A stretch of DNA of 64,000 bases from an uncultured Gammaproteobacteria bacterium (GCA_964491475.1 CAZBFO010000003.1:8766-72765); one strand, 5' to 3'; shown: positions 9,938-61,714, counted from the stretch's first letter. The notes: a model not told the origin generated them from the sequence alone. Translations and numbers: made by a program.

Positions 9938-9990
9938 GCCAATCCTTCGGCACAAACGCATAAACCCGCTTCGAATCTAACCCTTCTCCC

Positions 9991-12339: not shown

Positions 12340-12349
12340 TGCTGACGCA

Positions 12350-35632: not shown

Positions 35633-35641
35633 TGCGCTGTT

Positions 35642-39235: not shown

Positions 39236-39739
39236 ATGCAAAGCGCCCAGCTACAACATGACGAGTTCATGAAAGCGTACGATCTCTACGCCGACGCCAT
39301 TTTTCGTCATTGTTACTTTCGGGTGTATGACCGCGAGAAGGCCCGGGAAATGATGCAGGACGCGTTCATGAAGACCTGGGAGTACCTTTCCAAAGGAAAG
39401 GAAATCGATAACCTCCGGGCATTCCTTTATCGCGTGGCCAACAACATGGTCATCGACCACAGCCGCAAGAAGAAGGAGTCTTCGCTCGATGCGCTGATGG
39501 AAGAAGGGTTCGAACCTGCCGTCAACGACAAGACGACCCTGGCGGCGGAGGCCGGACAGATGATCGCGCTGCTGGACCGGCTCGACGTGAAGTACCGCGA
39601 CGCCGTCCGCATGCGGTATCTCGACGACCTTTCGCCTAAGGAAATCGCTCATGCATTGGGAGAGACGGAAAACGTCATCTCCGTGCGCATTCACAGGGGC
39701 ATTGCCCAACTGCGCGCCTTGATGGCGCAAACCGCCTGA
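39236..39739 (+). CDS. ECF-type RNA polymerase sigma factor (sigma-70 family)
   Basis: 167 aa; region 2 (..AFMKTWEYL..) and region 4 HTH (RMRYLDDLSPKEIAHALGETENVISVRIHRG). Confidence 0.85.
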   Translation: MQSAQLQHDEFMKAYDLYADAIFRHCYFRVYDREKAREMMQDAFMKTWEYLSKGKEIDNLRAFLYRVANNMVIDHSRKKKESSLDALMEEGFEPAVNDKTTLAAEAGQMIALLDRLDVKYRDAVRMRYLDDLSPKEIAHALGETENVISVRIHRGIAQLRALMAQTA

Positions 39740-39747
39740 TATCGCCT

Positions 39748-46938: not shown

Positions 46939-47583
46939 ATGACGCCTCCCATGCATTCCTACGACTCCCACTACCTGTACGTCCTCTCGCGAGGCTGGAA
47001 GAAAATTCTGGTCTTCGCTTTGGGTATCGCTCTCGCCGGCGCCGGTTTGAGCCTGCTGTTCCCGTTGCGCTACAGCTCGTCGATGCGCATGCTCATCATT
47101 CAGAAGCAGCTTTCGGCGACCGATCCGTACACTGCCATCAAGGCTTCGGAACGCATTTCGGACAACTTGTCGCAGATCATGTACACCACCTCGTTTTTCG
47201 ACAAGGTGATGGGCTCCAACTTCACCATCGACAAGTCGGTCTTCAGCACCGACGAGATGAAGAAGCGCAAGCAGTGGAGCCAGATGATCAGCACCCAGGT
47301 GGTGCGCGACTCCGGCATGCTCATCGTGACGGTCTACCACACCGACCCCAAGCAGGCCGAGCAGATTTCCCGCGCCATCGCCTTCATCCTTTCGACCGAC
47401 GGCGCCGATTACATCGGCGGAGGCAACCTGGACATCCGCTTGGTGGACGATCCGTTGATTTCCAAGTACCCGGTCAAGCCAAACATCCCCGCCAATGCCG
47501 TTCTCGGCTTTATGCTGGGCATCATCATCGGCACCGGCTACGTGCTGTCGGATTCGCGTCGACATTCCATTTTTGGAGCTTAA
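46939..47583 (+). CDS. Wzz/Cap-type polysaccharide co-polymerase (chain-length determinant) family protein
   Basis: Two terminal TM helices flanking a periplasmic domain; Pro-rich PVKPNIPANAVLGFMLGIIIG motif before TM2. Start set at ATG 46939 because the track's TTG at 46930 coincides with the predicted TSS. Confidence 0.6.
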   Translation: MTPPMHSYDSHYLYVLSRGWKKILVFALGIALAGAGLSLLFPLRYSSSMRMLIIQKQLSATDPYTAIKASERISDNLSQIMYTTSFFDKVMGSNFTIDKSVFSTDEMKKRKQWSQMISTQVVRDSGMLIVTVYHTDPKQAEQISRAIAFILSTDGADYIGGGNLDIRLVDDPLISKYPVKPNIPANAVLGFMLGIIIGTGYVLSDSRRHSIFGA

Positions 47584-47605
47584 AGTCAGAAAAGAACTAA
47601 GATTA

Positions 47606-47641
47606 GCCAAATCCGCCAAAACGGCGGATTTGGCTTATTTT
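47606..47641 (+). terminator. intrinsic terminator
   Basis: gccaaatccgcc-aaaac-ggcggatttggc, perfect 12-bp stem followed by ttatttt. Confidence 0.6.
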
Positions 47642-47743
47642 AGATAAAATATTCATTTTAAGGCTAAAATTATCCCGAGAAATGATGGGTAAGAGGCTTA
47701 AATTTAAGCTTAAACAAAGATGATTTTTGCCCTGTGGGTCATC

Positions 47744-47773
47744 TTGACAAAAGCCCTGTTTTATGTTACAGTC
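47744..47773 (+). promoter_or_regulatory. sigma70-like promoter TTGACAAAAGCCC...TGTTACAGT inside an AT-rich island
   Basis: -35 TTGACA 47744-47749, 18-nt spacer, extended -10 TGtTACAGT. Confidence 0.45.
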
Positions 47774-47991
47774 CTGTGTTAATTGATAACTGGAGCATTG
47801 AGACCGTTTGGCGAACAGCGCGACATCTCCTCCTCGTCACGCTGGACGTCAAACGGTCCCAGGGCTTCACGGTTCTGGAAAATGTTCGCTGACAATCGAA
47901 TGTGCACGGTTACAAGGCATTGGAAAATGCTTCGGCCGCCACCACTCGTGCCCGGAAGGGCCAACCATCCCTTTTGGGAAGGAGCAAGGTC

Positions 47992-48942
47992 ATGAAGAAT
48001 ATCGTTGTTACGTGTCTCACGGTTCTCGCTCTCACGATGGTGTCCAGCGTCGCTCTCGCGGAGGGCTCGCAGGTCAAGCTCCCGGCCGACGTGGCCGCGT
48101 GCGTCAACGCCTGCACGGGCTCAAGCCCTTCGGGCGCGGGCTCGTGCTGCGAAGACAGCGACCGGCGTCTCAAAGTCCTCGAGGCCGACCTTGCCCAGCG
48201 CAGGGCTTGGCTCGAGGCTGCTCGGAAGAATGTCCGGCCGCAGGTCGATAGGGTCAAGCAGCTTCAGGATCAACTGAAGTCGCTCAACGAGAGCGTCGAC
48301 AAGAACGCAGGCGAACTCGCCCGCGTCGCCGGCGAACTCGCCGTCCAGACCAAGAAGCTCGAAGATTTGACCAAAGACGTCAAAAATTTGGCAGAAAAGG
48401 TCTCGGGCCTCGAGCGCGATCTCGCCGACCTGAAGAAGACGGTCGACGGTCACGATGCGACGCTCGCCGATCACAGCAAGCGCCTCGAGAAGCTCGAGCT
48501 GGCGCCGCCCTCCATCAGGGTCGGCTTCCACGCGGGCGTCCTCGGGCTGCATGCCTTCGGCAGCGGCACGGACTTCACGGCAGTGCCGATTACTGCTAGC
48601 CTGACCTTCCCGATTTCGAAGCGCGTCACGGTGTTCACCGAGGCGGGCGCGACGTTGTCGGGAGACAGGTACGCGGTCGGCACCGTGCTTCACGGGGCCG
48701 CGCAGTACCACTTCGACCCGCACTGGTCGATCGACGGCGGCGTCACCAGCGTGTGGGCCGGTTTCAACAACCACCTGAAGGCCGCGCAAGCGTCCTTCCT
48801 GGCGGATGTGGGGCCAACCTACACGAATGGCGTCTTCATGGCGCGTGCCGGCCTCCTGGCCGGTCCGGCCTTCGAGCCAAGCCCGAAGGGAGCGTCTTTC
48901 GCTCTCGGCGGTACGCTTTCGCTCGGGGTCGTCTTGCCCTGA
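47992..48942 (+). CDS. hypothetical secreted coiled-coil protein with a C-terminal beta-rich domain
   Basis: Start at the MKNIVVT ATG with ggaaggagc RBS; signal peptide; CxxxC..CC; ~120-aa heptad-like region (LEADLAQRRAWLEAARK..LKKTVDG); Gly/aromatic-rich C-terminus. Confidence 0.5.
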   Translation: MKNIVVTCLTVLALTMVSSVALAEGSQVKLPADVAACVNACTGSSPSGAGSCCEDSDRRLKVLEADLAQRRAWLEAARKNVRPQVDRVKQLQDQLKSLNESVDKNAGELARVAGELAVQTKKLEDLTKDVKNLAEKVSGLERDLADLKKTVDGHDATLADHSKRLEKLELAPPSIRVGFHAGVLGLHAFGSGTDFTAVPITASLTFPISKRVTVFTEAGATLSGDRYAVGTVLHGAAQYHFDPHWSIDGGVTSVWAGFNNHLKAAQASFLADVGPTYTNGVFMARAGLLAGPAFEPSPKGASFALGGTLSLGVVLP

Positions 48943-49019
48943 GCGTGAGCTGGGGCGGTCCGAAATTGTTCGGACCGCCCTTCACCAAAAGTTCAACGCA
49001 TCAGGATTAGGAGCCAGTC

Positions 49020-49697
49020 ATGAAAACGTTCATCAAGTTCGCGAGCTTGCTCTCGTTCATCGTCATCTTTGCCGTCATCGGCGGCTGCGGCCTCCAGGAC
49101 GGCGAGTCCGACCCGGGATCCGGCGGTCCGCCTCCGAACAGCGGAGGCAACGGCGGTAACGGCGGGAATGGCGGTAACGGCGGTAACGGCGGCAACGGCG
49201 GTTCCGCCACGACCAGCAATGGCGGGGCGAAGCCTACGAACAAGGCTTGTGCTGTCGTCGATCTGCCCTCACCGTTCCAGAGCATCAAGTCGTACGACTT
49301 GGACTTTAACAAGTTCTACGTCAGCGGCTCAAGCACCGGCTTCGTGTGCGGCACTCTGCCGAACATGAAGTGGGACCAGTGCCAGGCTCTCGGCGACGAC
49401 AACGCTGATGCCTGGATCGGGATGACGATCGTGGACCCGAAGGCACTGCCGGACGGCACGTACGACTTCTCGTACAAGGACGCACGCGACGTGTTTGCAC
49501 AGTACGGCGCTCCTGCGCAGATTCTGTGCATGCCGCGCGACGGTGTCGCGTACCTTCAGTGCAATTGGGTCAACCAAGACGGCTCGACGACGGATCTCGG
49601 TCGCCAGGGCGAGTGCCACGTTCGCGTCAGTACGCATTCCGGCGTCATTTCGCCGGCAGGCAATGCTGTCGTGTTCTGGGACCGTCTGAACAAGTGA
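49020..49697 (+). CDS. lipoprotein with (GGN)n linker and Cys-containing C-terminal domain
   Basis: 225 aa; signal peptide plus lipobox-like VIGGC; SGGNGGNGGNGGNGGNGGNGG linker; C-terminal domain paralogous to the next gene (shared TYDFSY/TYSFTY and CNW). Confidence 0.55.
   Translation: MKTFIKFASLLSFIVIFAVIGGCGLQDGESDPGSGGPPPNSGGNGGNGGNGGNGGNGGNGGSATTSNGGAKPTNKACAVVDLPSPFQSIKSYDLDFNKFYVSGSSTGFVCGTLPNMKWDQCQALGDDNADAWIGMTIVDPKALPDGTYDFSYKDARDVFAQYGAPAQILCMPRDGVAYLQCNWVNQDGSTTDLGRQGECHVRVSTHSGVISPAGNAVVFWDRLNK
49143..49202 (+). repeat. hexanucleotide coding microsatellite (GGY AAY GGC)n
   Basis: Six consecutive ggcggtaac / ggcgggaat / ggcggcaac units encoding (GGN)6. Confidence 0.8.
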
Positions 49698-49735
49698 CGG
49701 GGTACGAAGGTCAGCCGAGATTCTTCGGCAGACAA

Positions 49736-49769
49736 GAAGGGGTCCAGCGCTTGCTGGGCCCCTCTTTTT
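49736..49769 (+). terminator. intrinsic terminator
   Basis: ggggtccagc-gctt-gctgggcccc hairpin followed by tcttttttat. Confidence 0.6.
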
Positions 49770-49806
49770 TATGCTTATTTTAGCATAAAAATAGTATATG
49801 GCATGG

Positions 49807-49835
49807 TTGACAAAATGGCTTTTTTGTGCTATGGT
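49807..49835 (+). promoter_or_regulatory. sigma70-like promoter TTGACAAAATGGCTTTTTTGTGCTATGGT
   Basis: -35 TTGACA 49807-49812, 17-nt spacer, extended -10 TGcTATGGT; AT-rich palindrome tatgcttattttagcata just upstream. Confidence 0.5.
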
Positions 49836-49919
49836 GATCAGTCCTCTAATACAAGATTTTGCGCCAACGGCCATTCGGGCTGAAGGTGTGGGGACACCAC
49901 GAATACGGGAGCTCATTCC

Positions 49920-50762
49920 ATGAAAAAGCATTTCGTTTTGGCACTGCTGTCTTCGGCGCTCATGCTCGTCGCTTGCGGCGTGCAGACCGGCGATGACGAG
50001 CTGTTCGCTCCGATGCCTCCCAATTCCGCCGCTTTCGGCGGAGTCGATGGCGGTCCGGCGGCCGACGCGGGCGCATCGCGCCCCGACGCCACGGCAGCTT
50101 CCTCCGACACCGGAGGAGGCAAGACCGACAGCGGTTCCTCGGAACCGAAGTCGGACGCGGGCGGCACGGTTCCGGACAGCGGCAGCGATGCCGCCGATTC
50201 CGGCAAACCGAAACCTGACGCATCGACCCCCGATTCCGGCGTCTCTGACGCTGGCGTCGCCGATGCGGCAACCGAAGCCGGCAGCGATGCCGGTGCCGAT
50301 TCCGGTCCGGCCGACGCTGGCGTGGTCGTTCCCGACAACGCCGATGTCGTCCGTTTGACCGCTGACCGCAAGACATTCCTGCTCTCGACTCGCTATATCT
50401 TCTCCGCCAAGTGCGGTGAGGTGCGCGGGCCGATGCCGGGCGTCGGCTGGTCCGCCGGTCCGCAGTCCTGCGACACCGATAGTGACGGCTACTTCGCCTA
50501 CACGCCGATCGCGGGGACGGTGGGGACCTACTCCTTCACTTACCTCGATCCCAACAAGCCGGCGGACGGCTGGGCCCTCTACGGCAATATCGACCTCCTT
50601 CGGGCGATGTCGCCGACGGCACGGTCGTTCGTCGAGTGCAATTGGTGGGATGCGTCCACGCAGAAGACCGTTTCGGTCGGCAACCCGAGCTGCAGCCTGA
50701 AGGCCACCTTCGGTGCCAACGGACTGCTCGCGGGTGCGGGGAACATGGCGAACCTCCAGTAG
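49920..50762 (+). CDS. lipoprotein with Asp/Ser/Gly/Ala-rich low-complexity region and C-terminal domain paralogous to the preceding lipoprotein
   Basis: 280 aa; classic lipobox LMLVAC; gggag RBS; ~90-aa acidic repeat-like region; shared C-terminal Cys pattern. Confidence 0.55.
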   Translation: MKKHFVLALLSSALMLVACGVQTGDDELFAPMPPNSAAFGGVDGGPAADAGASRPDATAASSDTGGGKTDSGSSEPKSDAGGTVPDSGSDAADSGKPKPDASTPDSGVSDAGVADAATEAGSDAGADSGPADAGVVVPDNADVVRLTADRKTFLLSTRYIFSAKCGEVRGPMPGVGWSAGPQSCDTDSDGYFAYTPIAGTVGTYSFTYLDPNKPADGWALYGNIDLLRAMSPTARSFVECNWWDASTQKTVSVGNPSCSLKATFGANGLLAGAGNMANLQ

Positions 50763-50785
50763 GTTCGACGGAAGTTCCATTCTAA

Positions 50786-50819
50786 AAAAGGGCGGCTGAC
50801 GCTTGTCGGCCGCCCTTTT
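50786..50819. terminator. bidirectional hairpin terminator
   Basis: aaaaagggcggc..(loop)..gccgccctttt. Confidence 0.55.
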
Positions 50820-50833
50820 ACGCTGCCCAAACG

Positions 50834-50842
50834 TGCTACAAT
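50834..50842 (+). promoter_or_regulatory. extended -10 (TGCTACAAT) 9 nt upstream of ATG 50851 (leaderless candidate)
   Basis: TACAAT at 50837-50842 with TG at 50834-50835. Confidence 0.4.
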
Positions 50843-50850
50843 GGGCCTGT

Positions 50851-52395
50851 ATGCACCACGGTGAACCGGTGGCCGACATCATGGCCAAAGAAACCACCAA
50901 GGCCGTACGCAGCCCCTATGGGCCCGTTTTGGGCACTCTTTTGACCATAACGGTGCTGCTGGGCATCATCGTTTCCCCGTGGAAGGCGGTGGCGCTGGCC
51001 GTAACCCTGGCGGTAGTGGTGGTTACCATGGCTAGGCCGCATTGGGCGCTGTTTTTCCTGGCGGTCTACACGCCCTTCGAACCTTTCCTTCTCAAATTCG
51101 TCCCGGACGAACTGTACGTCTACGCGCGTTATTTTACCGAGGGCCTGGTGTACCTGCTGTTGGCGGCCGTGCTCGTGCGCATCTTCGCGCGCGAAAAGAA
51201 AATGGTGGCCACGCCCATCGACCTGCCGTTCGTTTTTTTCCTGCTGGTCGCCCTCACTTCGTTGGTCGTGAATTTCGTGCCGCCGTTCATCGGCATCCTC
51301 GGTTTGCGGCAGATCATCCGCTTCATCCTGCTGTTCTTCGCGACCGTCTACCTTAATCCCGAGGAACAGTTCATTCGCAAGGTGACTGCGGCGATGTTCT
51401 GCGTGGTGGCGTTCGAGGGCGTGCTCGGATTGGCGCAGGCTTTCGTGGGTGCGCCGCTCGACCAGTTCCTGATTCCCAGCGAGCGTCACTTTTACGAAAG
51501 CATCCAGCTGACCAGCGGCACCGCCCAGTCGTGGTCGCCAGGCACGCGCGTCTTCGCCACGCTCGGGCGGTATGACCAATTGGGCACGTTCCTGTGCTTC
51601 TTCATCGTGCTGGCCATCGGCCTGTGGTACGTGCACGGGCGCAAGGAAGGCGGTCGCAAGTTCATGCCGTTCGCCGTCGCCGCGCTGCCGGCCCTCCTGC
51701 TGACGCTTTCGCGCGCCTCGTGGTTCGGCCTGCTCATCGCGCTGTTCTGCATCGGCGGCATGCTGATGCGCGACTGGCGGGTGCGGTTCGCCTACGCGGG
51801 TGCGATTTTCCTGGCGGTGGGCTATCTGGCCGTTTCCGGCATCACCGTCAAATACCTCACGGATTATCCCGAACAGACGCCGATAGAGCGCCTGTTCGAA
51901 TCGTTCTCGTACGAGCGGTGGCGCGGCGAATATTACGGCCTCGGTCGGCTGTACTGGATCGTGCAGACGCCGGCAGTGGTGGTGCGCTCGTCGCCGCTGG
52001 TGGGCGTGGGTCCCGGCCAATACGGTGGGGGAGCCGCCGCGGCGCTCGGCAACACCACGGTATACGAGCGCCTGAACCTGCCCTTCGGCGTCTACGGCAC
52101 GGACGGGTATATTGACAACAACTGGTTCTCGCTGTGGGGCGAGACGGGAACGCTCGGCCTGGTGTTCTACCTGTGGATGTTCGTGGCGCTGTGGCGAATG
52201 TCGCTGACCGTCTGGCGCGAGGCCAAGGACAAGAACGTGCGCGGCCTGGCGCTGGGTTTTGCCGGCTGCCTGCTGGCGTTCGGTTTCCAGGCGTTCCTGG
52301 CGACCTACCTCGAAGTGCGCACCATCGCGCTGTATTTTTGGATGTACGCCGCCTTCGTGTACGTCCTCGGGCGCAGGAACAAGGTGTTCAGCTAA
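50851..52395 (+). CDS. O-antigen ligase / Wzy_C family polytopic membrane protein
   Basis: About 12 TM helices; periplasmic loop LLLTLSRASWFGLLIALF typical of the O-antigen-ligase (Wzy_C) domain. Start at 50851 (MHHGEP) favoured over 50803 or 50881 from promoter position. Confidence 0.65.
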   Translation: MHHGEPVADIMAKETTKAVRSPYGPVLGTLLTITVLLGIIVSPWKAVALAVTLAVVVVTMARPHWALFFLAVYTPFEPFLLKFVPDELYVYARYFTEGLVYLLLAAVLVRIFAREKKMVATPIDLPFVFFLLVALTSLVVNFVPPFIGILGLRQIIRFILLFFATVYLNPEEQFIRKVTAAMFCVVAFEGVLGLAQAFVGAPLDQFLIPSERHFYESIQLTSGTAQSWSPGTRVFATLGRYDQLGTFLCFFIVLAIGLWYVHGRKEGGRKFMPFAVAALPALLLTLSRASWFGLLIALFCIGGMLMRDWRVRFAYAGAIFLAVGYLAVSGITVKYLTDYPEQTPIERLFESFSYERWRGEYYGLGRLYWIVQTPAVVVRSSPLVGVGPGQYGGGAAAALGNTTVYERLNLPFGVYGTDGYIDNNWFSLWGETGTLGLVFYLWMFVALWRMSLTVWREAKDKNVRGLALGFAGCLLAFGFQAFLATYLEVRTIALYFWMYAAFVYVLGRRNKVFS

Positions 52396-52401
52396 AAGCG
52401 C

Positions 52402-53658
52402 ATGAAAGTCGTCTTTGCCAACAAATACTATTTTCTGAAGGGCGGCGCGGAGCGCTATCTTTTCGATTTGAAGGCGCTGCTGGAGCGCCACGGCAACGAG
52501 GTCATACCTTTCGCCATGCGGGACGGGCGCAACCTCAAGACGCCGTGGGAAAAATATTTCGTCAGCGCCGTGCGGACCGAGCGCGTGCGTTTCTCGCTTG
52601 ACGGTCTCAAGACCGCCGGCCGGATGCTGTACTCGTTCGAGGCCAAGCGCAAGTTCGCGAGGCTGCTCGATGCCGCCAAGCCGCAGCTGCTGCACGTGCA
52701 CAACATCTACCACCAGATTTCGCCGTCCATTCTTCCCGAAGCGCGCAAGCGGGGAATCCCCGTGGTGATGACCGCGCACGATTACAAGCTGGTCGCGCCC
52801 AACTACTCGCTGTTTCACGACGGCGCCATCTGCGAGCGTACCAAGCCCGACAAGTACTGGCAGGCATACAGGCACCGTTGCATCAAAGGCTCTGCCGCCG
52901 CCAGCGCGCTCGCGGCGATGGAGATGACCCTGCACAAGGCGCTCGGCCTGTACCGAGACAACGTCGACAAGATCATCGCGCCCAGCCGCTTCATGCAGGC
53001 GCTGCTGGCCGAATACGGCATTCCCGCCCGAAAGATCGTGCATATCCCGCATCCGATCGACGCCTCGGCATGGCGACCGGCTTTCGGAGGGGGGAAGTAT
53101 GCGCTCTACGTGGGGCGCTTGTCCGAGGAGAAGGGCGTCGACGTTTTGATCCGCGCCGCGGCCATGCGAAAAGACATCCCCGTGCATATCGTGGGCACCG
53201 GCCCGGACGAGGCGCGATTAAAAGAGCTGGCCAAGAAGCTCGATGCCGCTAACGTCATCTTCCGCGGCTTCATGTCCGGCGGCGACCTCCGATCCGAATA
53301 TGCCGGAGCAAGTTTCCTGGTCGTTCCTTCGGTCTGGTACGAAGTCTTCGGCCTGATCGTTCTCGAAGCCTACGCTGCAGGCAAACCGGTGGTGGCCTCG
53401 CAAATCGGCGGCCTCGGCGAACTGGTCCGCGACGGCGAAACCGGCTTCCTCTGCTCCGCCGGCGACTCCGAAGACTTTGCCGACAAGATGGGCGCATTGT
53501 GGGACGCCCCGTTAATAGCCGACGACATGGGCGTCGCCGGACGCGCTTGGGTGGAAAGCGACTTCACCCCGGATGAACACCTGAAAAGGATTCTCGACGT
53601 ATATGCGGGCGCGCTGGCGTCCGCAAGCGCGCCCCTTGCGCGGCCCCGCTCCGGGTGA
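52402..53658 (+). CDS. glycosyltransferase family 4 (GT-B, RfaB-like)
   Basis: 418 aa; EVFGLIVLEAYAAGKPVVASQIGGLGELVRDGETGFL, the E-x7-E GT4 C-terminal motif. Confidence 0.85.
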   Translation: MKVVFANKYYFLKGGAERYLFDLKALLERHGNEVIPFAMRDGRNLKTPWEKYFVSAVRTERVRFSLDGLKTAGRMLYSFEAKRKFARLLDAAKPQLLHVHNIYHQISPSILPEARKRGIPVVMTAHDYKLVAPNYSLFHDGAICERTKPDKYWQAYRHRCIKGSAAASALAAMEMTLHKALGLYRDNVDKIIAPSRFMQALLAEYGIPARKIVHIPHPIDASAWRPAFGGGKYALYVGRLSEEKGVDVLIRAAAMRKDIPVHIVGTGPDEARLKELAKKLDAANVIFRGFMSGGDLRSEYAGASFLVVPSVWYEVFGLIVLEAYAAGKPVVASQIGGLGELVRDGETGFLCSAGDSEDFADKMGALWDAPLIADDMGVAGRAWVESDFTPDEHLKRILDVYAGALASASAPLARPRSG

Positions 53659-53695
53659 CGCTCTCGCTAAAAAAAATCTCGGCTCCGAGCAATCA

Positions 53696-53722
53696 AAAAC
53701 GAGACCCCTTCGGTCTCGTTTT
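53696..53722. terminator. bidirectional intrinsic terminator between two convergent GT4 genes
   Basis: aaaaacgagacc-ccttc-ggtctcgttttt. Confidence 0.6.
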
Positions 53723-53735
53723 GGCATGTGATCGG

Positions 53736-54941
53736 TTACGCCGTCATCCGCGTCCGCTTCGCGCTCACGAGCGCGGCCGTCGCGGTCCTGCGGGAAGCCG
53801 CGCGCATCGCGCTCCGTTCCGTCGCGAACAGCGACTCGTACGTGCGCTCGACGCCGCGCGCGACGTCATCCCAATGGTAGTTGGCGATGACGAATTTCTT
53901 GGCGGCGGCTCCGTTCAGCGCGACTGCTTCGGGCTGGTCGAGCAGCACGCGCAGCTTGCGGGTGAGGTCGGCGACGCTGCGGTTGCGGAAGCTCATGCCG
54001 AACTCGCGGGTGCATTCCATGTTCTCGGGAATGTCGGAAGCGAGGACGGTCTTGCCGTAGCTCATGGCTTCGAGAACTGCGATGGGCAGGCCTTCGGATT
54101 CCGAAGGGTGCACGACGGCGTACGAACCGGCGAAGACCTGCTCGAGCGCGCGGCCCTTGAGGTAGCCGGTAAAGAGGATGTCGGGGTTGCCGGCGGCCAT
54201 GGCGCGCAGGCGGGCCACGTAGTCGTCGGTGAAGGCCGAGCCGCCGACGATGACCAGCTTCTTGCCGCGGGTCAGGTCGCGCTTTTGCAGGCGCTGATAG
54301 GCCTCGATGAGATGGTGCGCGCCCTTATGGCGCACCAGGCGCGAAACCATGATCACGTAACCGTCTTTCTTCAGGCCGAACTTGGCCAGGACGTCAGTGC
54401 CGATGCGTCCGGGAGTCTCGATGCCGTTCGGAACGTAGATGACGTCGCCGCCGAAGCGGTGCATGCAGTACGACTGCAACGTCTTGGAGACGGCGATGGT
54501 CTGATGGGGGAACATGCAGGCGGCGCGTTCGCCGAGGCCGAGCATGGTGCGGGCGATGAAGCCCCACTTTTGGTGGTTGCGGTCGACACAGTGGAAGGTC
54601 GCCACGACTTTGGCGCGAGGCGCGAACACGCGCGGAATCCAGGAAAGCAGCGACGGACCGACGCCATGATAATGGATCACTTCGGCACCGTCGCGAATCG
54701 CGTGCACCGTCGAAGTGAAGGTGTGCACGATGGCATCGAGGTGCTTGGAGTTGATGGTCGGAGTGGCCACCGTGCTGACGCCTTTCGAAAAGCGGCGCTT
54801 TGCGGGCGCATACCAAGAACGCGTGTAGACGGTCACATCATGCCCTCGCTTGCCCAGGCGAACAGCCAAAGCTTCAACGTGGCGCTCAATGCCGCCAAAT
54901 TGCGTGGGGATGCCCTTTTGTCCGATCATTGCGATCTTCAT
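53736..54941 (-). CDS. glycosyltransferase family 4
   Basis: 401 aa; N-terminal MKIAMIGQKGIPTQFGGIERHVEALA and C-terminal EGLPIAVLEAMSYGKTVLASDIPEN motifs. Confidence 0.85.
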   Translation of the reverse strand: MKIAMIGQKGIPTQFGGIERHVEALAVRLGKRGHDVTVYTRSWYAPAKRRFSKGVSTVATPTINSKHLDAIVHTFTSTVHAIRDGAEVIHYHGVGPSLLSWIPRVFAPRAKVVATFHCVDRNHQKWGFIARTMLGLGERAACMFPHQTIAVSKTLQSYCMHRFGGDVIYVPNGIETPGRIGTDVLAKFGLKKDGYVIMVSRLVRHKGAHHLIEAYQRLQKRDLTRGKKLVIVGGSAFTDDYVARLRAMAAGNPDILFTGYLKGRALEQVFAGSYAVVHPSESEGLPIAVLEAMSYGKTVLASDIPENMECTREFGMSFRNRSVADLTRKLRVLLDQPEAVALNGAAAKKFVIANYHWDDVARGVERTYESLFATERSAMRAASRRTATAALVSAKRTRMTA

Positions 54942-54991
54942 AGGCGTTTTTGGCTCAACACTGCGATAAAAGCAGTATTTGAGAACCAGCT

Positions 54992-55020
54992 AACTTAGCA
55001 TAATTTTGGCTGATTGTCAA
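54992..55020 (-). promoter_or_regulatory. sigma70-like promoter (TTGACA-17-TAAGTT)
   Basis: Minus strand: ttgacaatcagccaaaattatgctaagtt, about 45 nt upstream of the GT4 ATG. Confidence 0.45.
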
Positions 55021-55044
55021 CGGTCGTGGTGGCCATAACTAACA

Positions 55045-55070
55045 AAAAAGCCCTTAAACAAGGGCTTTTT
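55045..55070. terminator. bidirectional intrinsic terminator
   Basis: aaaaagccctt-aaac-aagggcttttt. Confidence 0.6.
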
Positions 55071-55084
55071 TCAGGCTTCTGGCC

Positions 55085-57112
55085 TTATTTCCGGCTCTTC
55101 TTGCCGGTTTTCGTGGTTACTGGCGCGGGCTCGACGGCGCCTTTTCCTGCCGATCGCTGGTCGTAGGGAAGGTCCGTCGTCAGGTCGGCGGCAGTGGCAT
55201 GCAGGGTGGCGTTCGTTGCCTGATCGCGTCCGGTAATTTTGACGCTCTTAAGCAAGGTCGGCGCCGTCCCTACGTCCGCTGCCGTCGGGGTCAGCGCGAT
55301 CTCGAAGCTGCCGCCGACGCTGGTGGCGTCGCCGTTGGCAAAAGCAGGGACGCTCCCCAGGTCCCAGCGAACCGTGCGCGTGCTGGGCAAGTAGTCGATT
55401 GCCGTGCCCGAGGTGACGCTTGACTTACCCGTCCAGGAAACTTCGGGCGGCAGCGTCGCCTCGACGACAGTGCCGTCGACGCCGCCGGTGGTCGTCGTTA
55501 CGGTCAGGAAGACGCGATACTTGGTGGTTTCGCCTGCGCGCGGCGGCAGCGGGCCGATGCCCAGCTGGTCGCCGGCCTTGGTGTAGTACAGCGCGGCCGC
55601 CTCGATGCCCAGCCGGGTCGCCACCGGCAGGTCGATAGTGCCGGTATCGACGTGAACGACATCTGATTCGCCAGCCAGCTCGTACTCTGCGCGGCCGATG
55701 ACGTGGAGGGAAGGGAACGCGGTCGCGCCCAGGTCTTCCGAGGTAAGGTCACGCTTGGCGGAGAACGTCGCGATCAGCTCGCCGGATTCTCCCGGCTGCA
55801 CGATGGCCAGCTTTGGCGTGTCCTTTTCGTTCCACGAAAGGGCGGCCGGGTTCTGGTCGACGATAAACGACGCGCCCGGGTCGAGAGTCACGCGGAGATG
55901 GGCGATGGGCTGCGCGCCGTCGTTCTTGTAGCGAATGCTGACGCGCGCAGGTTCGCCGGGCAGCAGCGCGTCGCGGCCGTCGGGGTTGAGCAGCTGGGCG
56001 TCAAACGAGAGCGCTGCTGCACGCGAGTCGGCATTCCGGCGCACCCGTTCCGCAAGCGCGTTGCTCGTCTGGCCGTCCTCGCGCACGTACCCGCGCACGG
56101 TGAAGACCGAGGCCTCTCGCAGTTTTTCGGGCACCGATCGGAAATAGCCGTACATTTTCAGGGTGCCGTGAGCGTTGGCCGGCAGCGTTCCCAGGCGCCA
56201 TTCCCTGACGCCGGCGAAGGCCGGCGAAACGCCGGTAACCGTGAAGTCATCGGGAATCGCAATGCGAACGACGACGCCGGAAAGCGGTCGGTCGGCCTTG
56301 TTCGCGTATTCCAGTCCGATTTCGCGAGTCACCCCGCGGTCGATGTTCGCGGGCAGGTGCAGGTCGAGCGAGAGCACCGAGCCGGTGATGGGCCGATCGT
56401 CGAGCGTCGAAACGCGCGAGGAGACGGTGGCGGCGTCGTCCCAGTAAAGCAGCTCGGCCGACATCGAAGAAGTGTCGCCGGTGGCACCGTAGGTGCGCGC
56501 CTTGAAGCGGATTTCGTCGCGGCTGTTCGGCGGAACGGTGCCCAGCGCGTAGACCAGGATGTCGTGACGCGAATTTTCGGACAGCGCCTTAGCCATGGTG
56601 GTGTCGACCGTGCAAGCCTTTTCCTTGGGGTCGGCGTCGGCGACATCGCTGACCAGGCCGGTGCCCGGCGGCAGGTGCACCCGCAGGACGACGCAGCCCA
56701 GCGGCCTGGGCGAGTCGTTGCGATAGGCATAGACGTACTCGGTGTCGGCGCCGCTGACGATCGATTGCGGCGAAACGGCGTCGATGCGGGCCAGCGGCGG
56801 CGTGGGAATCAGCGGCAAGAGCGTGTCGGCGAAAAACCAGATCACCAGCATGCCGCTCAACATCGCCAGCAGAGCCATGTCGAACCAGAACACCTTGGAG
56901 TGGTGCTTGGGGAACCTGGTGCGGTATTTGCGCTCGTAGTGGCTGGCCAGATGGTCGTAGCACACCTTTTTGACGGGATCGGCGTACTTAAACAGCGGCT
57001 CGGCGATGTCCTGCAGCTTGTCCCAAATGCGCATCATCGCGCCCGAATAGGCGGTGACGGCTTTGGCGGCCGTCCCTTTGGCGCGAGTCTGCTTTTGCTT
57101 GCGTTCTGGCAT
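55085..57112 (-). CDS. membrane-anchored surface protein with repeated DUF11/CARDB-like beta-sandwich domains
   Basis: 675 aa; N-terminal cytoplasmic basic region, TM helix LLAMLSGMLVIWFFADTLL, then at least 4 repeats with the pattern ..L.PG..FIVD.. / ..IAIPDDFTVTG.. / ..ATLPPEVSWTG.. Confidence 0.5.
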   Translation of the reverse strand: MPERKQKQTRAKGTAAKAVTAYSGAMMRIWDKLQDIAEPLFKYADPVKKVCYDHLASHYERKYRTRFPKHHSKVFWFDMALLAMLSGMLVIWFFADTLLPLIPTPPLARIDAVSPQSIVSGADTEYVYAYRNDSPRPLGCVVLRVHLPPGTGLVSDVADADPKEKACTVDTTMAKALSENSRHDILVYALGTVPPNSRDEIRFKARTYGATGDTSSMSAELLYWDDAATVSSRVSTLDDRPITGSVLSLDLHLPANIDRGVTREIGLEYANKADRPLSGVVVRIAIPDDFTVTGVSPAFAGVREWRLGTLPANAHGTLKMYGYFRSVPEKLREASVFTVRGYVREDGQTSNALAERVRRNADSRAAALSFDAQLLNPDGRDALLPGEPARVSIRYKNDGAQPIAHLRVTLDPGASFIVDQNPAALSWNEKDTPKLAIVQPGESGELIATFSAKRDLTSEDLGATAFPSLHVIGRAEYELAGESDVVHVDTGTIDLPVATRLGIEAAALYYTKAGDQLGIGPLPPRAGETTKYRVFLTVTTTTGGVDGTVVEATLPPEVSWTGKSSVTSGTAIDYLPSTRTVRWDLGSVPAFANGDATSVGGSFEIALTPTAADVGTAPTLLKSVKITGRDQATNATLHATAADLTTDLPYDQRSAGKGAVEPAPVTTKTGKKSRK

Positions 57113-57122
57113 ATCGGTGATA

Positions 57123-59174
57123 TCAGCGGCCGGAAGAGAATTGGAAGACGTCGTCGGTCATGGTGGCGATTTCGTAGGTGCCGTCGCCGTTGGTATCGGC
57201 TACCGCCACGCGCACGCCCGTGCGAGAAGCAGGGTCGGCGGCGAAGAATCCCTTGCCTTGCGGCACGCCGAAGCGGTTGAAGATGCGCACGTGCGGCCCG
57301 CCCCCCGGCCCGGCGCCGGTGACGATTTCCGCCTTGCCGTCGCCGTTCAGGTCGCCAACGGCAACGTTCACGCCGCCGCGGAAGCTGCGGTCGTAAGCAT
57401 ACCAGCCTTTGTCTATCAGCTTGCCAAAGCGGCTGAACACGCGCACGTGCGGCCCGCCCCCCGGCCCGGCGCCGGTAACGATGACCGGTCGTCCTGTCCC
57501 GTAGACGTCGCCGACTGCCACGCTGACGCCGCCGTGGAATCCGGAAGCGTATGCCATGAAGCTCGGTCCCAACGGGTTGCCTTCGCGATCGTAAACGCGC
57601 ACTTCCGGCGCGCTGCCCTGGGTGGCACCGACGACCACCTCGGCTTTGCCGTCACCGTTCAAGTCGCCGACTGCCACGTTCACGCCTTGCGTGTACCCGT
57701 CGCCGAAAGGGGAGAAGGAAGCCTTGAGAGTGCGGTCCGCAGCGTAGATGGACACCCGGCCCTTGGCCGCCACCACCTTTTCGATTTGACCGTCCTTCTC
57801 GATGTCGGCATTGATGATGCTGGCGCTGCCGTCATAGCCGCTCTCATAAGAGAAGAAGCCGTTGCGCAGCTTGGAGCCGTCGGCTCCGAACAGGCGCACG
57901 AACGAGCCGTTGCCGAAGACGGCATTGGCCACCGTCTCGATGCGCTTCATCAGCAGCAGGCCGTCGTTGGGCGGAATAGTCACCGTGGTCACCACCGACC
58001 CGTCATTGGTGGCAGGGTCTTGCGTGCCGTGCAGTTTTTCCATCTCGCCGTCCAAGCTAACGGTTTTGGGGTCGGAAGAAGAGTTGACCAGTGCGACGCC
58101 GTCCTGGAAGTCGCGGCGCCAGACGCTCGGCGCAAGGCGGCGATCGGCGGGGGCGAGGACGTTCACGGCGTCGCCGAGCGGTTTGCCCAGGTGCACGTCT
58201 TCCTCGTCGTAGCGCCACAGCTGTCCGTGGTCGCTCTCGCCGAAGTCGAAGCTGAAGAAGCCGTCGGCCATCAGGGTCGAGGCCAGTCCGTAGCGCACCT
58301 TCTTGTAGTCGGTGTCGCTGCCGGCGTTGGCCGTGTTTGCGTTGATGATGAACACCGGCGCGCTCCCGACCGACTTGTGCAGGCGCACGTAGTTGGACAT
58401 CACGCCCGACCACGATCCGCCCGCCTCCCACGGCGTGGGGAAGGACTCGAACATGCGCCCGTTCACGTACGGCTGGAGCGCGTCGGTGGAGTCGCCGTTG
58501 GTGACGATGACCGCGTCGGAGCCGAGCGCGTCGCGCGTGGCCTTGAGCATGTTGACCATGCCGCGCTGCCAGGCGACGTCAATCAGCGTCTTGTCGTCGC
58601 GAATGCCGTCGCGGTGCAGGTCCAAATTGCCGCCGTTCATCCACGAAGCGGTGGCGGAAAATTCATCGTAAAAAATGCCGTCCCAGTCGCCGGTCGACCA
58701 GATATCATCATGGACGAACTTGGGAAGATAGCTGTTCCATTCGGACGCGCCCGAGAGCACCGCCGTTCCCGGCCAGACGGAGACGCGGTTGCCCTGCGGA
58801 TCGAGCAGCCACCAGGAGTCCTGGATGCCGTCCCGGAGTTTTCGGTGCAGAGGATCAACCCACGAAAAGTTGTACGACTTGGTAGGCACGTATGCCAGGA
58901 TGATGATGTCCGGGTTCAGCTGCCGCAGTTTGGGAAACATGCCGGGGTTGTAGACCTGCGCCTCGGCAGGGAACACCAGCAGGTCGTACTTGGCCAGCTG
59001 CGGATACATCGACGGCGTGATGTCCGTGCCGGCCTTGAGGTAGTAGTTGGCGGTGCGCACGAACTTGTCGCTCGGCGTCTTGATCGCCGCGCGCGCGTCC
59101 GAGGCAAAAAGCGAAACGCCCGCGACCGCAATCGCGAGTGTCAGCGTCAGGCGTTGTGCGGCGAGTCGTTTCAT
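57123..59174 (-). CDS. secreted protein: N-terminal TIM-barrel glycoside-hydrolase-like domain (tentative) plus C-terminal FG-GAP/VCBS beta-propeller repeats
   Basis: 683 aa; signal peptide; C-terminal repeats GDLNGDGKAEVVVGA, GDVYGTGRPVIVTGA, GDLNGDGKAEIVTGA, DTNGDGTYEIA (FG-GAP). The hydrolase call for the N-terminal ~400 aa is by loose resemblance only. Confidence 0.55.
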   Translation of the reverse strand: MKRLAAQRLTLTLAIAVAGVSLFASDARAAIKTPSDKFVRTANYYLKAGTDITPSMYPQLAKYDLLVFPAEAQVYNPGMFPKLRQLNPDIIILAYVPTKSYNFSWVDPLHRKLRDGIQDSWWLLDPQGNRVSVWPGTAVLSGASEWNSYLPKFVHDDIWSTGDWDGIFYDEFSATASWMNGGNLDLHRDGIRDDKTLIDVAWQRGMVNMLKATRDALGSDAVIVTNGDSTDALQPYVNGRMFESFPTPWEAGGSWSGVMSNYVRLHKSVGSAPVFIINANTANAGSDTDYKKVRYGLASTLMADGFFSFDFGESDHGQLWRYDEEDVHLGKPLGDAVNVLAPADRRLAPSVWRRDFQDGVALVNSSSDPKTVSLDGEMEKLHGTQDPATNDGSVVTTVTIPPNDGLLLMKRIETVANAVFGNGSFVRLFGADGSKLRNGFFSYESGYDGSASIINADIEKDGQIEKVVAAKGRVSIYAADRTLKASFSPFGDGYTQGVNVAVGDLNGDGKAEVVVGATQGSAPEVRVYDREGNPLGPSFMAYASGFHGGVSVAVGDVYGTGRPVIVTGAGPGGGPHVRVFSRFGKLIDKGWYAYDRSFRGGVNVAVGDLNGDGKAEIVTGAGPGGGPHVRIFNRFGVPQGKGFFAADPASRTGVRVAVADTNGDGTYEIATMTDDVFQFSSGR

Positions 59175-59184
59175 GGAAGGGGGA

Positions 59185-59466
59185 TTACTCCTCGTCCTTC
59201 TTTTCCAGCGTTTTGGGATTCGGGCTGTACAGCCGGTTGCGAATCTTCCACTGGTTCACGAACTGCCCGATGCCTTCCTTGGCCAGCTTGTTGCGCACGG
59301 ACGGTCGATCTTGCGACCAGCGCACCAAGCTCTCAAAGTTAATCTTATACCTTCCGCGGATGACCACATAGGTCACGTCGCCGTCCGAGATGGCACGACG
59401 AATCGTCTTTGTGGAGATGCCAAAGAGGCGAGAGGCTTCGGATACGGACACGCGGATGATGCTCAT
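59185..59466 (-). CDS. small helix-turn-helix DNA-binding protein (excisionase/MerR-like HTH)
   Basis: 93 aa; SVSEASRLFGISTKTIRRAISDGDV HTH; first gene of the minus-strand operon with the two surface-protein genes. Confidence 0.55.
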   Translation of the reverse strand: MSIIRVSVSEASRLFGISTKTIRRAISDGDVTYVVIRGRYKINFESLVRWSQDRPSVRNKLAKEGIGQFVNQWKIRNRLYSPNPKTLEKKDEE

Positions 59467-59531
59467 AGTAACCGAGTACAGTAGCAGTTCTGCCTTAAAA
59501 TGTCAACCCGACATTAAGGGTAAATCAGTGT

Positions 59532-59559
59532 TATTTGTCTACACCAGTGTAGACAAATA
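59532..59559. promoter_or_regulatory. 28-nt near-perfect palindrome (candidate operator) upstream of the HTH gene
   Basis: tatttgtctacac-ca-gtgtagacaaata (13-bp arms); adjacent second inverted repeat tgacg-tttc-cgtca at 59560-59573; 14-bp palindrome ggttgagctcaacc at 59653-59666. Confidence 0.5.
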
Positions 59560-59805
59560 TGACGTTTCCGTCAAATGTTTTTATCGACCGAATCGACTCG
59601 CTAAGCGACGAAGTCGCTCCGTTACTTTTTGAAGCTCGTCACGTTCCCTAATGGTTGAGCTCAACCGCTCGGCATTTTTTTGACCTTAAATAAGGCCGAA
59701 AAAACAAGGCTCCTTCGTTGCCAATACGGCTCCGAACCCTTATACTCTTCGACAGCGCATATAAGGTCATGAGCTGTAACGCTTTTTTCTTTTTCTCGTC
59801 TGATT

Positions 59806-60405
59806 GTGCAGAACCGTTTAAAAGAAAAGTTTCTCCTGTTTCGCATTAGGGCGAAAAAGGACCCTGAAGCGTTTGGCGCCATTTACGACGCCTACGTGAA
59901 GCAGCTCTACCGCTTCATCTACTTCAAGGTCGCGTCCGCGGAACAGGCTGAAGATCTCACCTCGGAAACTTTCCTCAAGGCCTGGCAGTACCTGAAGGAG
60001 AAGAGGGAAGTTCCGAACCTGCAGGCGCTCCTCTACAGCGTCGCGCGCTCGGTGGTCATCGACCACTACCGCTCGAACGCGGCTGAACGCGCCACGATCT
60101 CGCTCGACGAAAACATCGCCGACGCGAACGTGGACGTGGCCAGCGAGAAGTTCCTCAAGGACATGGAGACCAAGTTCGACACGACGCTCGTCCTGGAAAA
60201 GCTTCGCGGCTTGAAGGAAGAGTATCGCGACGTGGTCATCATGCGGTTCCTCGACGAGATGTCGACGGGTGAGATAGCGGCGGTACTCGGCAAGTCCGCC
60301 TCGAACGTCAGGGTCATCCTTCACCGGGCGACCAAGGCGCTTTCGGACGCCATCTCTCATGACCAATCGAGAACTCGGCACAATCCTGAAACAGACAAAG
60401 AATGA
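59806..60405 (+). CDS. ECF-type RNA polymerase sigma factor (second copy; GTG start)
   Basis: 199 aa; region 2 (YRFIYFKV..AEDLTSETFLKAW) and region 4 HTH (IMRFLDEMSTGEIAAVLGKSASNVRVILHRA). Confidence 0.85.
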   Translation: MQNRLKEKFLLFRIRAKKDPEAFGAIYDAYVKQLYRFIYFKVASAEQAEDLTSETFLKAWQYLKEKREVPNLQALLYSVARSVVIDHYRSNAAERATISLDENIADANVDVASEKFLKDMETKFDTTLVLEKLRGLKEEYRDVVIMRFLDEMSTGEIAAVLGKSASNVRVILHRATKALSDAISHDQSRTRHNPETDKE

Positions 60406-61420: not shown

Positions 61421-61714
61421 AAGGGCCAGGCCCTACAAAGTCGCCCGAACCGTTCGGACGTCGCTGTAGGGTCTGGCTACCGACAGTCGGGCCGTGCAAT
61501 CAAGTTGTGGTGCAGGGGGACTCTCCCCGCATGGGGCAAGTCCCCCCGCCGCAACTCCGCACTGCCCGATGAACCGGTCGCTATGACCTGTATATCGCTA
61601 TTTACGTGATAGGCAGAAAGGTCGGGATCTCGAAAGGATCGCCTCCACGGTACATCAGCCCGGCATTCCCATTTAGTGAATGCGGGTAAACTACCGAAAG
61701 GCAGTACATCTCAT

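Follow-up and report, generated by a model that had tools for sequence, protein, structure and literature searches.

A conserved gene cluster of Patescibacteria type predicted to assemble and trim a cell-envelope alpha-glycan

The subject of this analysis is a cluster of surface-related genes in a 64,000-nucleotide stretch of DNA (CAZBFO010000003.1:8766-72765, assembly GCA_964491475.1, deposited as an uncultured Gammaproteobacteria bacterium), referred to here, at its full length, as the window. The most economical reading of the cluster, predicted from sequence, synteny and structural models, is a module of Uhrbacteria/Magasanikbacteria-type Patescibacteria that assembles an alpha-glycan of the cell envelope and trims it. 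Taken together with its weaker component, namely that the polymer is wall-associated and serves secreted proteins carrying either an unannotated module of about 118 residues or FG-GAP repeats, this reading seems to us slightly likelier to be right than wrong. The conserved unit runs from the Wzy_C gene that starts at 50851 through an S-layer-like gene that ends about 1.3 kb past the window, and it includes genes for an extracytoplasmic function (ECF) sigma factor, a putative anti-sigma factor with a DUF5667 domain, and an HTH_17 protein. A first-pass annotation of the window had drawn the unit as a compact span of 12 kb, 46939-59174. That span takes in some of the conserved core together with a lineage-specific appendix of Wzz, coiled-coil and lipoprotein genes, and it ends before the regulators and the S-layer-like gene.

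The window has a G+C content of about 62%, and true reading frames were picked by third-position GC content (GC3); genes were recovered by this frame analysis combined with profile searches against Pfam and NCBIfam. All of the genes listed in the first-pass annotation proved real where it had placed them. The genes of the core and the control elements among them are as follows.

g6, 50851-52395, plus strand: polytopic membrane protein of WaaL/Wzy fold (Wzy_C superfamily)
g7, 52402-53658, plus strand: GT4 retaining glycosyltransferase
Hairpin AAAACGAGACC/GGTCTCGTTTT, 53696-53722, between the convergent g7 and g8: A4/T4 flanks, terminator-like in both directions
g8, 53736-54941, minus strand: GT4 glycosyltransferase with its own sigma-70-like promoter
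Hairpin, 55044-55071, minus strand, between g9 and g8: terminator-like
g9, 55085-57112, minus strand: single-pass membrane protein, N terminus inside, with DUF11-type repeats
g10, 57123-59174, minus strand: secreted, predicted GHL15 (GH168-like) TIM-barrel glycanase with a beta-sheet subdomain and five FG-GAP repeats
gH, 59185-59466, minus strand: 93-residue HTH_17 DNA-binding protein, heading the g10-g9 operon
Palindrome TATTTGTCTACAC/GTGTAGACAAATA, 59532-59559: perfect, 13+13, overlapping a promoter-like site of the gH operon; candidate operator
g11, 59806-60405, plus strand: ECF-type sigma factor (Sigma70_r2, r4_2, ECF), divergent from gH
g12, 60359-61420, plus strand: single-pass DUF5667 protein (37 bits), putative anti-sigma factor
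g13, 61715-64000, plus strand: secreted wall protein ("S-layer-like"), continuing beyond the window

Conservation was assessed in 80 species-level loci around g8 homologs and three around g10 homologs, onto which all window proteins were mapped by tblastn and jackhmmer. The core order is g13 (S-layer-like), g12 (DUF5667) and g11 (ECF sigma); then gH (HTH_17), g10, g9 and g8; then g7 and g6. All nine genes occur in this order and orientation in 18 of the 36 species-level loci with sufficient flank on both sides, at about 50% identity, so that the genes are syntenic in related genomes rather than scattered. Where the relevant side extends for 9 kb or more (52 loci), g9 and g10 are present in 38, gH and the sigma gene in 36, and g13 in 32. 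Identity to the distant loci is about 48-57% for g8, 46-53% for g6, 36-46% for g10 and about 20-26% for g9. Genes g1 to g5 are found beside the core in none but the closest relatives (L001, L003, L037, L081-83), and in further relatives they are replaced by pairs of secreted proteins with MopE motifs. Rearranged loci are instructive: three (L060, L068, L079) carry g6-g7-g8 beside gH, the sigma and anti-sigma genes and g13, without g9 or g10, and in three others (L065, L076, L080) g10 has moved to the other side of g8. Because flanking genes are lost at the same divergence and rearranged loci keep the partners together, the core appears to be selected for proximity, and its clustering is not a matter of chance.

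Two features of the core's borders and junctions were seen in passing. The position downstream of the Wzy_C gene is invariably taken by two secreted proteins or lipoproteins, of differing families: the paralogs g4 and g5 here, and two Cu-binding_MopE-motif proteins in distant Uhrbacteria (L010 14071-18203, L036 14536-18593). The distant pairs are secreted proteins with MopE motifs rather than glycan enzymes. Several genomes have insertions where the GT4 genes converge (L004 5614-10181, L022 11476-14455, L023 11803-12747, L044 11051-12322), which makes this junction a hot spot. Neither a flippase nor an initiating transferase is encoded in the 2-6 kb inserts at these four sites; their products are unrelated proteins, including HEAT, a methyltransferase/CYTH/HAD fusion, AAA, ParA-like and FAD enzymes.

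The protein g10, which has a 100% match in P0001, has a signal peptide of the cleavable type and matches GHL15 at 104 bits, against a Pfam cut-off of 27, as well as FG-GAP (60 bits) and FG-GAP_3 (54 bits). The AlphaFold2 model, made from a 52-sequence alignment, has a mean predicted local distance difference test (pLDDT) value of 90.5, with the (beta/alpha)8 barrel above 90, and the five FG-GAP repeats (residues 448-678) are modelled as all-beta. When this model was compared with PDB structures by Foldseek, the best 17 matches were all of GH168 type, mostly endo-alpha-1,3-fucanases (9nhf, 9f9v, 9joo, 8rg5, 8ya7), with E values of 1e-17 to 1e-12, template modelling (TM) scores of 0.64-0.72 on the target and 15-20% identity. 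Barrels of GH31, GH13, GH66, GH191 and GH114 followed, the last of these (9ep6), from the family of Ega3, being a weaker fold relative. A profile of the N-terminal domain built from 35 orthologs finds the same family by sequence (8rg5, E 1e-10; 8ya6, E 2e-9).

Enzymes of GH168 use an Asp on strand beta4 as nucleophile and a Glu on beta6 as acid/base, and a strictly conserved Lys, the "polar knuckle", binds the 2-O-sulfate of the substrate (PMC12534559). In g10, D170 (in DGIFYDE, on beta4) and E243 (in GRMFES, on beta6) align with the catalytic pair, falling on DGVFMD and MIEH/MFEH in the profile alignment to 8rg5, 9jom and 8ya6, and both residues are invariant in 52 g10 homologs. Because the catalytic Asp and Glu are aligned and invariant, g10 is probably active, and would be alpha-specific like the products of retaining GT4 enzymes; we regard it as probably an active retaining endo-alpha-glycanase of the GHL15 superfamily. 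The polar-knuckle Lys (IEKNH, in the 8ya6 alignment) corresponds in the g10 family to Ala or Val (lpVEaq), followed by an invariant Glu, in a region where alignment confidence is moderate. Since this sulfate-binding Lys is missing, we rejected the classification of g10 as a true GH168 fucanase or sulfated-fucan enzyme, and have not filed it under GH168.

The FG-GAP part of g10 had earlier been called integrin-alpha-like, and its profile does match integrin alpha propellers (E 5e-5). It is better read as a shared C-terminal module. A Logan contig that is identical to window positions 57447-64000 adds 11.3 kb past the window end, and in its FG-GAP part g10 shares 43% identity (E 5e-41) with the C-terminal part of a secreted Peptidase_S8 protein encoded 6.5 kb beyond g13 (L084 15733-17844). 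With the same module on an S8 protease, FG-GAP as the mark of an integrin-like adhesin was down-weighted; sharing of this kind is typical of modules that target proteins to the wall. Also beyond the window, a UDP-sugar dehydrogenase-like gene (268 residues) lies just before the Peptidase_S8 gene, and a GtrA-like gene just after it.

Both glycosyltransferases are assigned to GT4 by strong Pfam matches. For g7 the Pfam scores are 132 bits (Glycos_transf_1) and 77 bits (Glyco_transf_4), for g8 92 and 73 bits respectively, and the E-x7-E motif reads EVFGLIVLE in g7 and EGLPIAVLE in g8. By sequence, the closest solved relative of g8 is PglA (E 7e-13), followed by WaaG and PimA. PglA acts on an undecaprenyl-pyrophosphate-linked acceptor, and the acceptors of all three enzymes are lipid-linked; because these are the nearest solved relatives, the GT4 enzymes of the cluster are predicted to act on a lipid-linked acceptor too. 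Weak NCBIfam matches of g7 and g8, far under the cut-offs, are to IagA/BgsA, diacylglycerol glucosyltransferase and glucosamine-phosphatidylglycerol synthase. The two genes converge on a shared putative bidirectional terminator, as had been proposed, namely the hairpin at 53696-53722. Upstream of g8, after the terminator that follows g9, lies a sigma-70-like promoter, TTGACA-17-TAAGTT.

The polytopic protein g6, whose start is fixed by a 514-residue form (P0121), appears by its predicted fold to belong with WaaL. Its AlphaFold2 model (pLDDT 76) has about 12 helices, with conserved loops at 200-240 and 333-424, and the best PDB match by Foldseek is WaaL (7TPG, E 1e-6, TM score 0.62), followed by RodA/FtsW (SEDS). 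Nearly all of 120 g6 homologs among the matches listed carry a precomputed PF04932 assignment. No His is invariant in 38 homologs. The loop motif of WaaL and PglL, H-N-x-x-L...E-x-G, reads D422-N423-N424-W...E431-T-G in g6 (residues 422-433), so that the His position appears, on motif inspection only, to be an invariant Asp; the catalytic residue of the g6 family may thus differ from that of WaaL and PglL. O-oligosaccharyltransferases are members of the Wzy_C superfamily as well, and g6 is a divergent member in which polymerase, ligase and oligosaccharyltransferase are indistinguishable by the features considered here.

The membrane-anchored protein g9 has a conserved cytoplasmic tail of about 75 residues, three beta-sandwich repeats of DUF11 type and, at the C terminus, a further conserved domain. 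Its own DUF11 score is marginal (25.9 bits against a Pfam cut-off of 24.6), and DUF11 is found in 31 of 35 orthologs (best 5e-16) and CARDB in three. The hydrolase-like call for g10 and the DUF11-like call for g9 therefore both stand up to profile searches. A count of at least four repeats was slightly generous: three mutually homologous repeats are clear (105-240, 245-375, 380-500), and the fourth domain, at 505-645, is divergent. A sequence search of g9 against the PDB gave chance antibody matches only.

The full-length g13 protein (P0241) has 1208 residues, with an N-terminal module of about 118 residues (61844-62197) followed by beta-rich repeats. Its family exceeds 1000 proteins of about 1200 residues, and those named by source are hypothetical proteins of Patescibacteria. 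No Pfam domain, including the known S-layer or anchoring types SLH and CWB2, was found in g13 or in 120 homologs among the matches listed. The protein is Ser/Thr-rich, and a paralog is encoded on the same contig. The gene adjoins the rest of the cluster in most loci and stays with the glycosyltransferases where g9 and g10 are absent. The connection that the first-pass annotation drew between the cluster and the gene at 61715 is thus backed by conserved adjacency, rearranged loci included, whereas the name "S-layer" draws on nothing more than size, composition and the sharing of a module of anchoring type, with no known domain.

That module has the pattern YYxGxDGKRYxFPN...NVTYRPG...PKVYAV...WNxxIDDVxDAFF and no Pfam or PDB match. 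It recurs at the C terminus of the two secreted proteins that follow and at the N terminus of a third (L084 8929-9288, 12000-12350 and 13487-13837). Database searches find it in 4313 representative proteins, 3487 of them at E<=1e-10; the 150 best range from 148 to 1544 residues. The module sits either right after the signal peptide or at the extreme C terminus. Because modules shared by different secreted proteins regardless of position are the signature of wall-targeting domains, the 118-residue module looks like a surface-anchoring tag.

The core also carries its own set of candidate regulators. The gene gH, missing from the first-pass list, scores 32.8 bits for HTH_17 (cut-off 27) and diverges from the sigma gene g11; it was found in 45 loci, always in the same position. 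A degenerate form of the palindrome upstream of it, TTGTnTAnA-n(2-6)-TnTAnACAA, has 32 matches in the 1.34 Mb of the loci plus the window, 26 of them just upstream of gH and spread over 17 of the 46 gH-bearing sequences (the 45 loci and the window). Loci of Magasanikbacteria type have two or three tandem copies. The motif is best read as a candidate operator for the HTH_17 protein. The genes g11 and g12 overlap by 47 nucleotides, both here and in L081, and fit an ECF sigma factor with its putative anti-sigma factor, having Sigma70 regions 2 and 4 only and a single-pass membrane partner. No paper mentioning DUF5667 was found in the literature searched. A second ECF-type sigma/DUF5667 pair occurs at 39230-40998 on the plus strand, with no g13-like gene after it.

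A k-mer count on the upstream regions of g13 gave no promoter motif common to the sub-operons in the style of an ECF regulon; it returned only A[AG]GTCG[AG]G, in the g13 leader (31 of 162 matches against about two expected), with no enrichment before other core genes. This element, at about 61610-61640 in the window and in the g13 leaders of 31 of 37 loci, lies about 100 nucleotides before the g13 start, inside a 300-nucleotide GC-rich leader, and could be a promoter -10 region or an element of the 5' untranslated region. Rfam and tRNA scans detected no RNA element in the locus.

The gene content of the window points to a genome of the Patescibacteria, or Candidate Phyla Radiation (CPR): giant proteins with T4SS_pilin domains, the two sigma/DUF5667 pairs, a LytR-CpsA-Psr (LCP) enzyme and housekeeping genes are part of this content, and the nearest relatives in protein searches are labelled Candidatus Uhrbacteria, Magasanikbacteria or Patescibacteria group. 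The Patescibacteria-type locus was likewise met in L003, L014, L017, L023 and about 20 other loci from GTDB species records titled "uncultured Gammaproteobacteria bacterium", and the submitters' taxonomy labels on those records are probably wrong. The T4SS_pilin proteins are adjacent, at 9964-12339 and 12299-23155 on the plus strand (791 and about 3618 residues), each with an N-terminal T4SS_pilin domain followed by Ig-like/TIG domains; by their domains, the two would seem to form another surface system in the window.

Upstream of g6 lies the lineage-specific appendix.

g2, 46939-47583, plus strand: short polysaccharide co-polymerase-like protein of CpsC/CapA type with two transmembrane helices, without a kinase domain
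Hairpin, 47605-47635, after g2: strong, bidirectional and terminator-like, with a 13-14 bp stem and T runs on both strands
g3, 47992-48942, plus strand: secreted coiled-coil protein whose C-terminal region, of about 140 residues, is rich in beta-strands
g4, 49020-49697, plus strand: lipoprotein with lipobox IGGC and a (GNG)n linker
Promoter, 49807-49835: sigma-70-like by sequence, assigned to g5
g5, 49920-50762, plus strand: lipoprotein with lipobox LVAC

The call of g2 as a Wzz-type co-polymerase held in its topology and motif, and not in its scores. Two transmembrane helices flank an extracytoplasmic domain, as in polysaccharide co-polymerases, according to the sequence and an alignment of 10 orthologs, and P175, P181, P184, G193 and G197 are conserved in a Pro/Gly-rich motif entering the second helix. 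The alignment to TIGR01006 (the CpsC family) is nearly full length (residues 25-206 on 23-194 of 226 positions), yet Wzz (20.9 against 25.5 bits), GNVR (25.3 against 27.7) and TIGR01006 (32.8 against 296) are all under their cut-offs. For g3, a signal peptide was read from the sequence; Pfam and NCBIfam gave generic coiled-coil matches only, and the gene is present in just seven related loci. Its C-terminal 140 or so residues (48500-48942) have an alternating amphipathic beta-strand pattern like that of a small beta-barrel, which would be odd if the organism has a single membrane. The lipoproteins g4 and g5 are paralogs, as judged from jackhmmer cross-matches, and have no Pfam or NCBIfam match. 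Farther off in the window are two more genes related to surface polymers: an LCP wall-polymer ligase (2454-3923, minus strand), 43 kb from the core, and a TMEM260-like/DUF2723 GT-C glycosyltransferase (35594-37453, plus strand), 17 kb from it.

The idea of a machinery for a surface glycan, already put forward in the first-pass annotation, is upheld by the strong GT4 matches, the WaaL-like model of g6, the GHL15 hydrolase and the synteny of the core. Gene content, folds, catalytic residues, conserved synteny and the operator motif together suggest a scheme in which substrate, order of steps, acceptor, regulation and anchoring role are proposals. An initiating transferase and a flippase encoded elsewhere would start the glycan and carry it across the membrane; in the cytoplasm, the retaining GT4 enzymes g7 and g8 would extend it as a lipid-linked alpha-glycan. 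Outside the membrane, g6 would either polymerize the glycan or ligate it to its final acceptor, with the CpsC-like g2 setting chain length in this lineage, and the LCP enzyme could attach the polymer to peptidoglycan. The secreted glycanase g10, held at the surface by its FG-GAP propeller, would trim or release the polymer, and g9 would act as a membrane-anchored scaffold. The genes are co-inherited with that of the 1208-residue wall protein g13, and would be controlled by the ECF sigma/DUF5667 pair and by the HTH_17 repressor with its palindromic operator. The polymer would probably be the wall ligand or matrix for g13 and for other proteins with the 118-residue module.

Several points weigh against this scheme. 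Its basis is wholly computational. Profile searches found neither an initiating phosphoglycosyltransferase nor a Wzx flippase among the GC3-supported open reading frames of the window, in line with what had been reported from the first pass, or in the 11 kb downstream; the pathway is therefore incomplete locally. Nor was there a match to ABC transporter families among the GC3-supported reading frames of the window. The earlier description of g6 as a Wzy_C-like polytopic protein holds for its WaaL-like fold and for nearly all of its listed homologs, whereas the window protein itself falls just below the Pfam cut-off for Wzy_C (29.5 against 31.7 bits), and neither its sequence nor a 38-sequence profile matches any solved structure in the PDB, WaaL and Wzy included. 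The co-polymerase g2 lies outside the conserved core and has no kinase partner, profile searches having found no cognate bacterial tyrosine kinase (CpsD/CapB; AAA_31/CbiA-type) in any reading frame of the window. Finally, the loci used for synteny are one clade, picked through g8 homology.

The cluster may go further and constitute a surface-protein anchoring system of the clade's own, analogous to SLH with its secondary cell wall polymer (SCWP) or to CWB2 with PSII and made of unrelated parts, a proposal that we put forward tentatively, as possible and still rather doubtful. The self-made alpha-glycan of the GT4 enzymes and the WaaL/Wzy-fold protein may then be bound by the 118-residue module, by the FG-GAP propellers on secreted enzymes, or by both, and the GH168-like endo-glycanase may remodel this matrix, tuned by the ECF/DUF5667 sensor and the HTH_17 repressor.

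Four other explanations deserve to be weighed against an envelope alpha-glycan module. Protein O-glycosylation, which we consider unlikely, would have the GT4 enzymes build a lipid-linked oligosaccharide and g6, as a PglL/WsaB-type O-oligosaccharyltransferase, transfer it in one piece to g13 or another surface protein, with g10 trimming the product. The membership of g6, however divergent, in a superfamily that holds such transferases is consistent with this, as are the Ser/Thr-rich composition of g13, its adjacency in most loci and its retention with the glycosyltransferases even without g9 and g10; a Wzz-like gene dispensable in most genomes would also fit a non-polymerizing transferase. Yet the presence of an endo-acting glycanase and of a co-polymerase suits a polymer better than it suits short glycans on proteins, g13 is without a defined glycosylation motif, the apparent Asp at the WaaL/PglL-type His position of g6 (seen by motif inspection only) is out of keeping with such an enzyme, and no feature of g6 separates an oligosaccharyltransferase from a polymerase or ligase. 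A glycolipid-anchored polymer resembling lipoteichoic acid, with one or both GT4 enzymes making a glycosyl-diacylglycerol anchor and g6 ligating an undecaprenyl-pyrophosphate-linked chain to it, is improbable. Its model would be TacL of the monoderm pneumococcus, a member of Wzy_C for which ligation of teichoic-acid chains to an anchor of glycolipid has been proposed (PMC5727136). The weak, sub-cut-off NCBIfam matches of g7 and g8 to glycolipid-anchor GT4 enzymes point the same way, but these are no better than their matches to many other GT4 subfamilies, and the window showed no genes for teichoic acid (polyol-phosphate transferases, TacF-type flippase). PglA, the solved enzyme closest to g8, works on an undecaprenyl-pyrophosphate-linked acceptor.

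Patescibacteria are mostly episymbionts, and g10 and g9 might instead bind a polysaccharide of the host surface and cleave it as the cells attach, with the glycosyltransferase genes as neighbors for regulatory reasons only. To this host-directed role, too, we assign little probability. The secretion of g10, its retained catalytic residues, its propeller of a ligand-binding type, the dedicated ECF/anti-sigma sensor alongside and the degradation of foreign polysaccharides by its closest characterized relatives would all suit it, as would the loci that keep the glycosyltransferases without g9 and g10. Set against these are the position of g10 and g9 in most loci, immediately upstream of a GT4 gene and sharing its orientation, their persistence in the rearranged block, the occurrence of the same propeller on a protease, which suggests an address tag for the cell's own surface, and the absence from g10 of the sulfate-binding Lys that underlies fucanase specificity. 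That the genes form no functional unit at all, and are adjacent merely through shared ancestry in one clade, we consider very improbable. All loci do belong to a single related clade, selected through homology to g8, and terminators and separate promoters divide the block into at least four transcription units. The core nevertheless persists while its flanks are lost or replaced at the same divergence, and rearranged variants keep the partners.

Polysaccharide clusters beside surface-protein genes are known already, and each enzyme here comes from a known superfamily. What is new is the conserved combination of genes, the fusion of a GH168-like glycanase to FG-GAP repeats, the divergent WaaL/Wzy-fold protein, and the regulator set of an ECF sigma/DUF5667 pair with HTH_17 and operator; no published description of the module was found in the literature searched. 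The envelope of Patescibacteria mediates their episymbiotic lifestyle and is experimentally almost uncharted. The cluster offers several handles on it: a secreted, probably active glycanase whose catalytic residues are defined, a divergent enzyme of WaaL/Wzy fold, a candidate pair of operator and repressor, and a widespread, unannotated 118-residue module. Should the anchoring proposal hold, it would explain the display of a large share of the CPR surface proteome; should it fail, what remains is a clearly bounded polysaccharide cluster specific to one lineage.

Comparison with known systems places the components in context. The GH168 fucanases (Fun168A/E, PbFucA, 9nhf) share with g10 the (beta/alpha)8 barrel with its beta-sheet subdomain, the beta4 Asp, the beta6 Glu and coverage by the Pfam GHL15 model; g10 differs in its low identity to them (15-20%), the lack of the polar-knuckle Lys, the FG-GAP fusion and a context that is biosynthetic rather than catabolic. 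Wzy-dependent pathways, such as those for O-antigen, group 1 capsule and Gram-positive capsular polysaccharide, likewise combine GT4 enzymes, a Wzy_C-superfamily protein and a CpsC-like co-polymerase, and the window adds an LCP enzyme. Here, by contrast, no Wzx or initiating transferase is nearby, a CpsD-type kinase is lacking, conservation of the core does not extend to the co-polymerase, and g6 is too divergent for a sequence match to any solved WaaL. PelA, PslG, Ega3/Sph3 and PgaB are self-glycan hydrolases encoded in exopolysaccharide operons. They resemble g10 in that the gene for a secreted glycoside hydrolase lies beside those for the transferases of the polymer that it presumably cuts, although the synthase-type or Pel/Psl-type machinery has no counterpart in the present cluster. 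As polytopic proteins of the WaaL/Wzy clan that serve undecaprenyl-pyrophosphate-linked wall polymers in bacteria free of lipopolysaccharide, Bacillus anthracis WpaA/WpaB (PMC6030368) and pneumococcal TacL (PMC5727136) offer possible analogies for g6, in a context of LCP ligases and S-layer anchoring (PMC6030368, PMC5727136); WpaA/WpaB belong to Pfam PF13425 rather than to PF04932, the family assigned to nearly all listed g6 homologs.

The closest parallel, by analogy, is the cwp/anionic-polymer region of Clostridioides difficile with Cwp19. There the anchoring domain is CWB2, unrelated to the FG-GAP propeller and the unannotated 118-residue domain found here; the hydrolase is of GHL10 rather than GHL15/GH168-like type; and the unit described here additionally includes a WaaL/Wzy-fold protein, an ECF sigma pair and HTH_17, with a putative S-layer and a predicted polymer. 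Cwp84 of C. difficile combines a protease with CWB2. Cwp19 combines a GHL10 TIM-barrel hydrolase with CWB2, in the slpA/cwp cluster beside the locus for the anionic polymer PSII (PMC5765458). In both organisms, then, a surface-protein gene adjoins wall-polymer glycosyltransferases, one and the same module occurs on a GHL-type TIM-barrel hydrolase and on a protease (in C. difficile for wall targeting, and here putatively so), and neighboring secreted proteins share a single domain of known or apparent anchoring function.

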